A stretch of DNA of 64,000 nucleotides, from sequence record OP870145.1. One strand, written 5' to 3'. Below the pieces are notes generated by a model. That model searched no databases. It worked only from the letters and a program-made list of their open reading frames with translations, and had not been told where the DNA came from. How positions within the stretch are numbered: position 1 is the stretch's first letter; each line of letters begins with the position of its first letter. Below are positions 8,644 to 10,117 of the stretch, piece by piece. This DNA comes from Escherichia phage vB_Eco_F26. Position numbers and translations under genes: made by a program.

Positions 8644-8719
8644 TGGTCGAGACAGTAGGGATCGAACCTACGACCTAGGACTTAGAAGGTCCTTGCTCTT
8701 CCTTCTGAGCTATGCCCCG
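8644..8719 (-). tRNA. tRNA-Arg (anticodon TCT)
   Basis: Manual fold: acceptor CGGGGCA/TGTCTCG (2 G-U), anticodon loop CTTCTAA, T-arm GTAGG-TTCGATC-CCTAC, encoded CCA. Confidence 0.7.
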
Positions 8720-8723
8720 TAAT

Positions 8724-8799
8724 TGGGGTGACCGATGGGAGTCGAACCCATGACTACGAGAATCACAATCTCGAGTTCTACCAACTGAACTACGGCCAC
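8724..8799 (-). tRNA. tRNA-His (anticodon GTG)
   Basis: Manual fold: acceptor GTGGCCG/CGGTCAC, D-arm TAGTTCAGTTGGTAGAAC, anticodon loop TTGTGAT, T-loop TTCGACT, CCA. Confidence 0.7.
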
Positions 8800-8913
8800 A
8801 TTAATACCTACTCCAACAATCAAGATGTCTTCACACGAAATTAAGAGAAGAGTGATCAGTTCAACCCCTATAATCGCGTCAAGTAGATATTAATGTGACA
8901 GTTGTCACAAATT

Positions 8914-8988
8914 TGGCGGACGTGATAGGATTCGAACCTATAACCAATCGCTTAACAGGCGATCGCTCTGCCATTGAGCTACACATCC
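8914..8988 (-). tRNA. tRNA-Asn (anticodon GTT)
   Basis: Manual fold: acceptor GGATGTG/CACGTCC, anticodon stem ATCGC/GCGAT with loop CTGTTAA, T-loop TTCGAAT, CCA. Confidence 0.7.
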
Positions 8989-8992
8989 AAAT

Positions 8993-9079
8993 TGGTGGGG
9001 AGTGGTGGAGTCGAACCACCCGAGTCGCAATGACAATGGATTTACAGTCCACACCGCTACCTCTACGGGATAACTCCCC
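8993..9079 (-). tRNA. tRNA-Tyr (anticodon GTA), long variable arm
   Basis: Acceptor GGGGAGT/ACTCCCC, anticodon loop CTGTAAA, T-arm GGTGG-TTCGACT-CCACC, CCA; D-arm pairing not cleanly resolved by hand. Confidence 0.6.
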
Positions 9080-9088
9080 AAATTAATT

Positions 9089-9163
9089 TGGTGGCCCTGG
9101 GTGGAATTGAACCACCATCTGGCGATTATGAGTCGCTTGCTTGAACCTTCCAGCTACAGGGCC
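9089..9163 (-). tRNA. tRNA with CAT anticodon (Ile-lysidine type as in T4, or Met)
   Basis: Acceptor GGCCCTG/CAGGGCC, anticodon loop CTCATAA, T-arm GGTGG-TTCAATT-CCACC, CCA. Confidence 0.6.
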
Positions 9164-9171
9164 AAATTTTC

Positions 9172-9657
9172 TTATTTTATGTAATATTTATTTAAAAACT
9201 TTCTAGCTTGAGTATGGCTAACATTTATAGCGTTTGCATAATTTTTAATAAAACCTCGTTCATCCATATTAAAATTTTCTAATATTTTTAATCGTCTAGT
9301 TATCTCATCTTGGCTTAAGGTACTTGCATTATTTTTAGAAATTTTTTCTAAGGACTGTGCCGAGTGTTTTCGACCATTAAAATTAAAATTTTTAGATTTT
9401 GGAGGAAATCTATTATTTAGTCTCGCATCTTTTGTATTTTGATTATTAGTTGCGCAATATATGTTATTTAATGAATATGGTCCTTTATCGCCGAAACGGC
9501 ACATGCAGTATTCATGACCCTTTCTTCCACGCTTATCATATTTTCCCGTTGATTTCCACCAATGCAGCCATTCATCAAAAGTTAAATTCCATTCAATGTT
9601 TCTACGTATAGCAGAATTCCGCTGAGAAATATATTTTGCATAATCTTCTTTCATCAC
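9172..9657 (-). CDS. HNH-family homing endonuclease-like protein with NUMOD-type DNA-binding motifs, embedded in the tRNA cluster
   Basis: 161 aa; GHEYCMCRFGDKGPYSLNNIYCATNNQN (HNH_3-like), GRKHSAQSLEKI repeat, C-terminal helix-turn-helix-like segment; T4 has a GIY-YIG seg gene in the analogous region. Confidence 0.6.
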   Translation of the reverse strand: MMKEDYAKYISQRNSAIRRNIEWNLTFDEWLHWWKSTGKYDKRGRKGHEYCMCRFGDKGPYSLNNIYCATNNQNTKDARLNNRFPPKSKNFNFNGRKHSAQSLEKISKNNASTLSQDEITRRLKILENFNMDERGFIKNYANAINVSHTQARKFLNKYYIK

Positions 9658-9701
9658 AAATTTCTCTACTTATTCAATACACCAAGCTAAATCAGCAAAA
9701 C

Positions 9702-9791
9702 TGGCGGAGGCGATAGGATTTGAACCTATGAGTCGCCGGAGCGACTGCCGGTTTTCAAGACCGATGCATTAAACCACTCTGCCACGCCTCC
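9702..9791 (-). tRNA. tRNA-Ser (anticodon TGA), long variable arm
   Basis: Acceptor GGAGGCG/CGCCTCC, anticodon loop CTTGAAA, T-loop TTCAAAT, CCA; sits 2 nt after tRNA-Pro as in the T4 Pro-Ser dimeric precursor. Confidence 0.7.
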
Positions 9792-9793
9792 AG

Positions 9794-9867
9794 TCTCCGT
9801 GGCAGGATTTGAACCTACGACATTCTGCTCCCAAAGCAGACGCTCTACCAAACTGAGCTACACGGAG
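9794..9867 (-). tRNA. tRNA-Pro (anticodon TGG), CCA not encoded
   Basis: Acceptor CTCCGTG/CACGGAG, anticodon stem TCTGC/GCAGA with loop TTTGGGA, T-loop TTCAAAT. Confidence 0.7.
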
Positions 9868-9877
9868 TAAATTAAAT

Positions 9878-9951
9878 TGGAGCGGATAATGAGAATCGAA
9901 CTCACATCATCAGATTGGAAGTCTGAGGTAATACCATTATACGATATCCGC
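9878..9951 (-). tRNA. tRNA-Gly (anticodon TCC)
   Basis: Acceptor GCGGATA/TATCCGC, anticodon stem TCAGA/TCTGA with loop CTTCCAA, T-loop TTCGATT, CCA. Confidence 0.7.
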
Positions 9952-9956
9952 AAATT

Positions 9957-10043
9957 TGGTGCGAGAAGTGGGACTCGAACCCACAAGGAAATCATTCCGC
10001 AGCATTTTAAGTGCTGTGCCTTTACCAATTTGACCATTCTCGC
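9957..10043 (-). tRNA. tRNA-Leu (anticodon TAA), long variable arm
   Basis: Acceptor GCGAGAA/TTCTCGC, anticodon stem CAGCA/TGCTG with loop CTTAAAA, T-loop TTCGAGT, CCA. Confidence 0.7.
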
Positions 10044-10044
10044 G

Positions 10045-10117
10045 CTGGGAATAAAGGACTCGAACCTTTGCATCTAGCAGTCAAAGTGCTATGCCTTACC
10101 AACTTGGCTAATTCCCA
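10045..10117 (-). tRNA. tRNA-Gln (anticodon TTG), CCA not encoded
   Basis: Acceptor TGGGAAT/ATTCCCA, anticodon stem TAGCA/TGCTA with loop CTTTGAC, T-loop TTCGAGT; abuts tRNA-Leu as in the T4 Gln-Leu dimer. Confidence 0.7.

Follow-up and report, generated by a model that had tools for sequence, protein, structure and literature searches.

In a 64,000-nucleotide (nt) stretch of the genome of Escherichia phage vB_Eco_F26 (sequence record OP870145.1; this whole stretch is referred to as the window), positions 8644-10117 contain a cluster of ten transfer RNA (tRNA) genes. We consider it fairly probable that this cluster belongs to a T2-type tRNA/stable-RNA operon that supplies tRNAs to the phage, that its tRNA-Tyr and probably its tRNA-Asn double as spare parts against the defence nucleases PtuAB and AriB, and that homing endonucleases shape its gene content. 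The cluster as such is ordinary and already known, the set of phage T2L having been published in 2008 (PMC2330249).

All ten tRNA genes that ARAGORN detected in the whole window were located on the minus strand inside 8644-10117, in the transcription order Gln(UUG), Leu(UAA), Gly(UCC), Pro(UGG), Ser(UGA), a 538-nt gap, a CAU-anticodon tRNA, Tyr(GUA), Asn(GUU), a 114-nt gap, His(GUG) and Arg(UCU). Nine of the ten matched the Rfam model RF00005 at 59-74 bits (gathering score 29), and the long-arm tRNA-Tyr was instead matched by the tRNA-Sec model at 35 bits. An earlier interpretation made from the letters of the DNA (the sequence-only reading) had named the same ten minus-strand tRNAs with the same anticodons and positions, and ARAGORN together with Rfam confirmed all of them. 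It had also described the Gln-Leu and Pro-Ser pairs as adjoining as in T4, which was borne out (Gln-Leu are contiguous and Pro-Ser are separated by 1 nt, likewise in T4), and it was correct that, compared with T4, tRNA-Thr is absent and Tyr, Asn and His are extra, the T4 cluster having tRNA-Thr and being without the other three. The features of the array are, in transcription order:

10044..10117, minus strand: tRNA-Gln (UUG); ARAGORN, Rfam 66 bits; CCA not encoded; adjoins tRNA-Leu (dimeric precursor type); 73/73 identical to T4.
9957..10043, minus strand: tRNA-Leu (UAA); ARAGORN, Rfam; 87/87 identical to T4.
9878..9951, minus strand: tRNA-Gly (UCC); ARAGORN, Rfam; 74/74 identical to T4.
9793..9867, minus strand: tRNA-Pro (UGG); ARAGORN, Rfam; CCA not encoded; 1 nt from tRNA-Ser; allele differs from that of T4 (85%).
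9702..9791, minus strand: tRNA-Ser (UGA); ARAGORN, Rfam; 86/87 identical to T4.
9172..9657, minus strand: open reading frame (ORF) of 161 amino acids, homologue of the T2L trna.1 protein; fills the 538-nt gap.
9089..9163, minus strand: CAU-anticodon tRNA, assigned from sequence to the tRNA-Ile2 type; ARAGORN, Rfam; 100% identical to the T2L 'tRNA-Met(CAU)', 65% to T4 tRNA-Ile.
8993..9079, minus strand: tRNA-Tyr (GUA) with long variable arm; ARAGORN; 86/87 identical to T6, 85/87 to T2L.
8914..8988, minus strand: tRNA-Asn (GUU); ARAGORN, Rfam; 75/75 identical to T2L.
8894..8909, minus strand: small hairpin GUGACA-ACUG-UGUCAC, upstream of the pre-His element; folding and sequence reading.
8800..8894, minus strand: structured RNA element of 95 nt; folding, covariation and covariance model.
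8724..8799, minus strand: tRNA-His (GUG) with C73 and U at position -1; ARAGORN, Rfam, alignment.
8644..8719, minus strand: tRNA-Arg (UCU), T2-type allele; ARAGORN, Rfam; 70% identical to T4.

For tRNA-Tyr, a role as a counter-defence spare part against Septu and the PtuAB of retron-Eco7 is probable from sequence comparison. The gene is 86/87 identical to that of T6 and sits at the same locus, and in T6 the counter-defence role has been shown experimentally. Septu (PtuAB) was found to cut the variable arm of tRNA-Tyr at C48/A49, the T6 tRNA-Tyr rescued infection when it was overexpressed or amplified, and loss of the tRNA-rich region sensitised T6 to Septu; T4, which is without tRNA-Tyr, was Septu-sensitive whereas T2, which has it, was resistant (Chihara et al. 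2026, PMC13096335). According to the same paper the T5 tRNA-Tyr resists retron-Eco7 owing to its variable loop, and the window tRNA-Tyr contains a 31-nt run, covering the variable arm and the T-arm, that is identical to T5 tRNA-Tyr. Amplification of tRNA-Tyr in T6 is driven by segB, which the window lacks, so that SegB-driven amplification would be unavailable in cis. The gene for tRNA-Tyr was also observed over its whole length at 97-99% identity in unrelated families, namely in rV5-like coliphages of 135-142 kb and in records whose labels name Pseudomonas and Campylobacter phages, a pattern of sequence sharing that suggests that one tRNA-Tyr allele has passed horizontally between families of coliphages.

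A spare-part role against PARIS is plausible for tRNA-Asn, judging by the bases that flank the cleavage site. The PARIS nuclease AriB cuts at 40|41 beside a UAAU motif, the T5 tRNA-Lys evades AriB via changes at positions 39 and 41, and the T5 Lys, Thr and Asn tRNAs jointly neutralise PARIS (PMC12409363). The window tRNA-Asn has the anticodon loop of the host and reads U36-A-A-G39-C40-G41 compared with U-A-A-U39-C40-C41 in the host, and it thus carries changes within positions 39-41 of the kind that accompany evasion of AriB in T5. The T5 tRNA-Asn reads G39-U40-U41, so that G39 is common to T5 and the window. We therefore predict that the window tRNA-Asn is resistant to AriB through G39/G41. 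The tRNAs of T5, overall 62-87% identical to those of the window, include the PARIS-evading Lys, Thr and Asn and the retron-Eco7-evading Tyr. The anti-Septu activity was shown by others on the near-identical T6 tRNA-Tyr, and the anti-PARIS role of tRNA-Asn is one that we infer. The nucleases for which countering has been demonstrated act on the variable arm or the anticodon stem and not on the wobble position. What the sequence-only reading had proposed for the extra tRNAs, a counter-defence set of spare parts, was accordingly upheld for Tyr (by the T6 experiments, at 86/87 identity) and is plausible for Asn (G39/G41), and its colicin-type mechanism was not.

The supply role was examined by comparing 19,234 codons from 68 non-overlapping ORFs of the window with 14,748 codons from 42 annotated E. 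coli genes, a sample of modest size. The phage/host ratios were 9.46 for AGA, 6.22 for AUA, 4.22 for UCA, 3.72 for GGA, 3.15 for UUA, 1.89 for CCA and 1.53 for CAA, and the most enriched amino acids in the phage ORFs were Tyr (1.63 times) and Asn (1.59 times). His was the lowest of all twenty amino acids at 0.52 times the host value, and its share was 1.36% on one strand and 1.35% on the other, a division by strand that roughly matches that of late and early genes. Lys (1.58 times) and the Thr codon ACA (3.87 times) were over-used as well and have no tRNA in the cluster. Usage thus explains nine of the ten tRNAs, tRNA-His being the exception. The sequence-only reading had preferred spare parts to codon-usage tuning, and this preference survives only in part, since usage covers nine tRNAs including Arg, Tyr and Asn, and does not cover His. 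Reading of AUA would fall to the CAU tRNA, which we assign from its sequence to the tRNA-Ile2 type (lysidine-modified, AUA-reading) and not to tRNA-Met. The TilS determinants of tRNA-Ile2 are the anticodon stem-loop and the acceptor pairs C4-G69 and C5-G68. The window tRNA is 77% identical to E. coli ileX compared with 70% to metU, the core of its anticodon stem-loop (GCGACUCAUAAUCGC) is that of E. coli ileX, and its acceptor stem reads GGCCC...GGGCC.

In the reading that we favour, minus-strand polycistronic precursors would be cut into tRNAs by host enzymes, with processing presumed to be as in T4; RNase P would release the tightly adjoining pairs such as Gln-Leu and Pro-Ser, and the host would add CCA where it is not encoded. 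In the supply role, Arg-UCU, Ile-CAU, Ser-UGA, Gly-UCC, Leu-UAA, Pro-UGG and Gln-UUG would serve codons that are 1.5 to 9.5 times commoner than in the host, and the Tyr and Asn tRNAs would serve the two most over-used amino acids of the phage. In the spare-part role, tRNA-Tyr and probably tRNA-Asn would refill pools drained by host defence nucleases, the PtuAB of Septu and retron-Eco7 cutting tRNA-Tyr in its variable arm and the AriB of PARIS cutting tRNA-Asn at 40|41. Given that the phage tRNA-Tyr is cut too, it would work by dose, and tRNA-Asn may also act by its cleavage-site substitutions. Homing endonucleases would reshuffle the gene content, the trna.1-type ORF standing here in the tRNA-Thr slot of relatives.

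Several points weigh against this reading. Demand alone adequately explains Tyr and Asn, and demand itself does not fully predict the set, given that Lys and ACA are enriched and tRNA-Lys and tRNA-Thr are missing. Septu cleaves the T6 tRNA-Tyr like that of the host, and the wild-type dosage protects T6 only intermediately (PMC13096335). PARIS chiefly targets tRNA-Lys and tRNA-Thr(UGU) (PMC12409363), neither of which ARAGORN found in the window, so that tRNA-Asn alone would be unlikely to rescue the phage from PARIS, and PARIS strongly restricts T6. Finally, tRNA-His fits neither the supply role nor the spare-part role.

The anticodon loops were compared with those of the cognate tRNAs of E. 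coli K-12 (the Tyr loop was read by hand from the sequence). Positions 32-38 matched those of the host fully in Tyr (CUGUAAA), Asn (CUGUUAA), His (UUGUGAU) and Arg (CUUCUAA) and also in the CAU tRNA and Pro; Gln was the only compared tRNA with a loop unlike that of its E. coli cognate. Changes in the anticodon loop as a sign of nuclease evasion were consequently rejected for Tyr, Asn, His, Arg, CAU and Pro, and the differences from the host for which the sequence-only reading had proposed a check at nuclease sites are lacking in Tyr, Asn, His and Arg. The colicin E5 context is present in Tyr, Asn and His and the colicin D context in Arg, and both the bond cut by E5 (34|35 in the context U33-G34-U35) and the bond cut by colicin D (A38|G39) lie in sequence unchanged from the host. 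This differs from the type described by van den Berg et al. 2023, in which loop mutations near the cleavage site evade anticodon nucleases. The fourth E5 target, tRNA-Asp, was not found by ARAGORN anywhere in the window.

The window belongs to a Tequatrovirus, with the cluster placed between the trna.2/ipI side and rnaD/rnaC/e.8, and the 2-kb region around the cluster matched 1085 phage records. The best match was Escherichia phage vB_VIPECOOM01 (Tequatrovirus; 97.5% over 2 kb), and the identical ten-tRNA set and order occurs in vB_VIPECOOM01 and 215Ecol030PP. The Tyr-Asn pair was found in 395 phage records at a coverage of at least 80%, and the module of spacer plus tRNA-His in 245. In T2L (GenBank AJ880101; Brok-Volchanskaya et al. 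2008, PMC2330249) locus, order and strand are those of the window except that His is missing, the order being Gln-Leu-Gly-Pro-Ser, trna.1 ORF, tRNA(CAU), Tyr, Asn, Arg, trna.2 ORF, rnaD and rnaC. The Asn and CAU tRNAs are 100% identical between the two phages, Tyr is identical at 85/87 positions and the ORF protein at 127/130, and the window, unlike T2L, has an extra module of 194 nt between Asn and Arg, made up of the hairpin, the 95-nt element and tRNA-His. T4 has eight tRNAs in the order Gln, Leu, Gly, Pro, Ser, Thr, Ile(CAU), segB, Arg, rnaD, rnaC; it resembles the window in genomic position, direction, the adjoining Gln-Leu and Pro-Ser pairs and the downstream rnaD and rnaC, but has the GIY-YIG gene segB in place of the trna.1-type ORF. 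The order in T6 is Gln, Leu, Gly, Thr, CAU, Tyr, segB, Arg, without Pro, Ser, Asn and His. The relative REP3 combines the spacer with Thr, Ile, Tyr and Asn and is without His, and in L021, a relative from IMG/VR, the tRNAs number eleven and Thr stands between Ser and the same CAU tRNA. These differing subsets in T6, T4, T2L, REP3 and L021 indicate that the locus is a mosaic. It was also observed that the Arg, CAU and Pro tRNAs are 70%, 65% and 85% identical to those of T4 while Gln, Leu and Gly are identical, which points to allelic replacement inside the seemingly shared part of the cluster. Downstream of tRNA-Arg the following features were recorded:

8277..8627, minus strand: ORF of 116 amino acids, phrog_3355; its position is that of the T2L trna.2 ORF (matched by position).
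8161..8277, minus strand: homologue of T4 species 2 stable RNA (rnaD), 110/118 identity to T4 rnaD.
8016..8154, minus strand: homologue of T4 species 1 stable RNA (rnaC), 136/139 identity to T4 rnaC.
7942..7965, minus strand: terminator-like GC-rich hairpin followed by a T run, from a consensus scan only.

From its sequence and place, the hairpin at 7942-7965 is probably the end of the tRNA/stable-RNA transcription unit.

The 161-amino-acid ORF at 9172-9657 is 127/130 identical to the T2L trna.1 protein, which is annotated with 133 amino acids, and it sits exactly where the eleven-tRNA relative L021 (1900-1985) has tRNA-Thr, in the order Ser-Thr-CAU. In the predicted structure the N-terminal part appears to form a beta-beta-alpha domain, for which PacI (HNH superfamily) is the best structural match, and the C-terminal part a Myb/helix-turn-helix-like domain. 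No Pfam or NCBIfam match to an HNH profile was obtained even at E<=10, and no sequence match in the PDB. Eight residues were invariant in the 16 homologues (W30, W34, R54, D57, G59, Y61, N65 and N74), and no histidine that could be catalytic was conserved among them. Thus, where the sequence-only reading had an HNH gene between the Ser and CAU tRNAs, the ORF is present, but neither an HNH profile match nor a conserved histidine accompanies it; on the structural model it is probably a free-standing homing-endonuclease-like gene. The presence-absence polymorphism of ORF and tRNA-Thr is typical of a homing-endonuclease gene. In T2L, SegB cuts inside each of the tRNA genes, about 1250 bp are replaced during co-infection, the region is non-essential, and the preferred 27-bp SegB site lies in the tRNA-Asn gene (PMC2330249). 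The window tRNA-Asn gene is 100% identical to this gene of T2L, and by analogy co-infection with T4 or T6 would be predicted to lead to cutting and replacement of the stretch that runs from the CAU tRNA to Arg.

The tRNA-His of the window has A at position -2 (A-2), U-1 (window position 8800), C73 and a normal 7-bp acceptor stem, compared with U-2, G-1 and C73 in E. coli hisR. The U-1/C73 combination recurred in Jiaodavirus and Karamvirus, in two divergent IMG/VR T4-like contigs, in an Aeromonas straboviridae phage and in T5. G-1 is encoded in an Erwinia jumbo phage and in an Arthrobacter phage, and the absence of G-1 as a general trait of phage tRNA-His was rejected on this ground. The bacterial pre-tRNA-His analysed, save those of some alpha-proteobacteria, are cut at -2/-1 and retain G-1, and RNase P keeps G-1 only with U-2, G-1 and C73 (PMC5499578). 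For histidyl-tRNA synthetase (HisRS), G-1 is described as the major identity element. Since U-2 and G-1 are not encoded, the phage tRNA-His should mature without G-1. The gene therefore falls outside the bacterial type, defined by an encoded G-1 opposite C73 and preceded by U-2, and it does have the GUG anticodon, C73 and a conserved cloverleaf. Among nine distinct T4-like copies, 97.9% of the cells in the cloverleaf were paired and 10 pairs were changed on both sides, and the anticodon loop core, C73-CCA and the first three acceptor pairs were invariant across the T4-like copies. A decaying pseudogene was rejected because compensatory changes preserve the cloverleaf. According to the T5 record an amber-anticodon (CUA) derivative of T5 tRNA-His suppresses efficiently, and such tRNAs are thus processed and charged by some synthetase. 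A literature search on T5 RNAIII/tRNA-His or on phage tRNA-His without G-1 returned nothing relevant, with the older T5 literature probably not covered.

The 114-nt gap between Asn and His folds at -32.7 kcal/mol (z = -4.4; 0/200 shuffles as stable), and the pre-His element gave z values of -3.6 to -4.4 against shuffles. The 95-nt element consists of a 14-bp terminal helix, a middle arm whose sequence and length vary among lineages and a 4-bp hairpin that has the 7-nt loop UCWUGAU, and the 3' strand of the terminal helix stops exactly at position -1 of tRNA-His. About 80 nt of the element accompany tRNA-His at 81-91% identity in Karamvirus and Jiaodavirus, and in these two genera and in divergent IMG/VR T4-like contigs the order is always Gln, an element of 96-118 nt, His and then usually Ser. 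For the two conserved helices, 97.0% of the cells were paired among 13 distinct copies, compared with 32-52% when the partners were slid by 1-3 columns, and 8 pairs were changed on both sides compared with 0-2 in the slid controls; 0/500 shuffles reached these values. A covariance model (R1) gave the tRNA strand 101 bits and the opposite strand 22 bits, which together with the G-U pairs places the element on the tRNA strand. The model found one copy in the window and none in T4, T6 and T2L.

Other identities for this spacer were tried and rejected. Neither a promoter nor a terminator was indicated, the consensus scan being empty there on the tRNA strand; a diverged T4 rnaC or rnaD gave local alignments at chance level only; and a known RNA family was dismissed as Rfam gave no match over 8800-8913 at E<=1. 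T5 has an annotated RNA of 106 nt, RNAIII ('stable RNA with unknown functions'), which lies directly 5' of tRNA-His (T5 10207-10390) and shares position and fold layout (a long terminal helix) with the pre-His element. Model R1 gave no match to RNAIII in the 49-kb T5 locus at E<=10, and a gapped global alignment at 72% is not meaningful; homology was therefore rejected as not demonstrable, and the relation is treated as an analogy in position and shape. Some further observations concern the surroundings of the element. The arms of the hairpin at 8894-8909 reproduce the first five acceptor pairs of tRNA-His (G-C, U-A, G-C, A-U for G-U, C-G), and the hairpin may have been left by recombination or may duplicate part of a tRNA-His end; its UGUCAC part also precedes the element in Karamvirus copies. 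In REP3 (1508-1633) the element is kept between Asn and Arg without tRNA-His and its 3' end is altered (GGUAUUGCU), so that either element and tRNA are separable or His was recently deleted. Other spacers between tRNAs in Jiaodavirus and Karamvirus also fold unusually well (His-Ser, 96 nt, z -4.7; Asn-Asp, 253 nt, z -5.7), examples being 556-808, 885-1045, 1375-1470 and 1556-1621 in Klebsiella phage KP01 (L013), with L012 and L020 likewise. Parts of these spacers resemble T4 rnaD and rnaC, and the tRNA-like 3' half of rnaC homologues is called as a 95-nt 'tRNA-Met/Phe' by ARAGORN.

Four other explanations were weighed against the combined supply and spare-part reading. Pure translational tuning, in which the ten tRNAs match AT-rich codon and amino-acid usage and have no role in defence evasion, appears to us distinctly unlikely. 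It agrees with nine of the ten tRNAs serving codons or amino acids enriched 1.5 to 9.5 times and with loops identical to those of the host; however, His is the most depleted amino acid, Lys and ACA are left uncovered, a near-identical tRNA-Tyr decides the outcome of T6 infection on Septu hosts (PMC13096335), and the sharing of tRNA-Tyr at 97-99% with unrelated phage families suggests selection beyond the codon usage of one phage. The proposal that the phage took up Tyr, Asn and His together because of their common G34 (queuosine) against nucleases of the colicin E5 type, and Arg against those of the colicin D type, is in our judgement highly improbable. Colicins are imported bacteriocins and not phage-triggered defences, and neither a link to phage infection nor a role in phage defence is known for them. 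All three extra tRNAs do have GUN anticodons and usage leaves His unaccounted for at 0.52 times, but the host-identical loops 32-38 of Tyr, Asn, His and Arg do not predict resistance, Asp is absent, and Tyr and Asn head the list of over-used amino acids, with Arg-UCU being found in T4 also and matching AGA at 9.5 times. Nor were the three tRNAs gained or kept as a unit, since T6 has Tyr alone, T2L and REP3 have Tyr and Asn without His, and in other genera His is a separate module with Gln and Ser. The general spare-part hypothesis, published in eLife in 2023, had named colicins E5 and D (PMC10264068), this paper noted that coliphages encode E5-target tRNAs, and His(GUG) is among possible minor AriB cleavage products in PARIS sequencing (PMC12409363). 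With loops identical to the host, Asp missing and the countered nucleases cutting elsewhere, the GUN/colicin E5 and colicin D mechanism advanced by the sequence-only reading is not supported.

It is possible, although we hold it to be rather doubtful, that the set is largely an accident of gene conversion by homing endonucleases at a non-essential locus, with the tRNA genes as cargo and target sites and not as functions selected one by one. Near relatives hold differing subsets at the same site, the ORF at 9172-9657 lies exactly in the tRNA-Thr slot of relatives, SegB cleaves and replaces the tRNA genes of T2L in a non-essential region (PMC2330249) and segB is enriched beside tRNA genes. Such a selfish mosaic is compatible with the combined reading as an account of the origin of the set, but the compensatory pairs (10 in the tRNA-His cloverleaf and 8 in the leader) show both to be under purifying selection, and the fit to phage-enriched codons is too systematic for drift. 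An unlikely alternative concerns the leader and tRNA-His only and takes them as not ordinary, the leader helix setting the RNase P cut or the tRNA being a poorly chargeable decoy or sensor for a tRNA-binding host factor. In line with this, all T4-like lineages sampled and T5 have U-1, compared with G-1 in E. coli and two unrelated phages; G-1 is described as the major HisRS identity element, RNase P retains it only with U-2/G-1/C73 (PMC5499578), His demand is the lowest of all amino acids, and a covariation-supported RNA adjoins position +1 in T4-like phages as RNAIII adjoins tRNA-His in T5. On the other hand, the amber-suppressor version of T5 tRNA-His works and is hence processed and charged, an invariant anticodon loop and C73 are what a working tRNA-His would be expected to have, stable RNAs beside tRNAs are common in such operons (rnaC, rnaD and other spacers) so that the adjacency may be incidental, and REP3 has the element without His. 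We therefore put forward only tentatively, and with low expectation, that the leader and the tRNA-His without G-1 form a dedicated non-canonical unit across Tequatrovirus, Karamvirus, Jiaodavirus and other T4-like phages, with an analogous arrangement in T5. In such a unit the leader helix ending at -1 might govern 5' processing of tRNA-His, and the RNA so produced could act outside bulk translation, for example as a decoy or sponge for a host factor that targets or senses tRNAs; alternatively, the tRNA-His might be charged through an unrecognised identity rule.

The finding of the cluster adds little as it stands, given that the set was published in 2008 and recurs in hundreds of coliphages, that the spare-part hypothesis dates from 2023 and that the role of tRNA-Tyr was reported in 2026. 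The useful outcomes are the exclusion by sequence of the colicin E5 and D version, the predicted AriB resistance of tRNA-Asn and the singling out of tRNA-His as the one member that demand and simple replenishment both fail to explain. The low demand for His, the missing G-1 and the conserved leader leave this module as the one part of the cluster without an explanation. If the tRNA-His without G-1 and its leader had a special role, this would bear on tRNA-His identity without G-1 in the E. coli cytoplasm and on the purpose of the stable small RNAs in the tRNA operons of T-even phages and T5.

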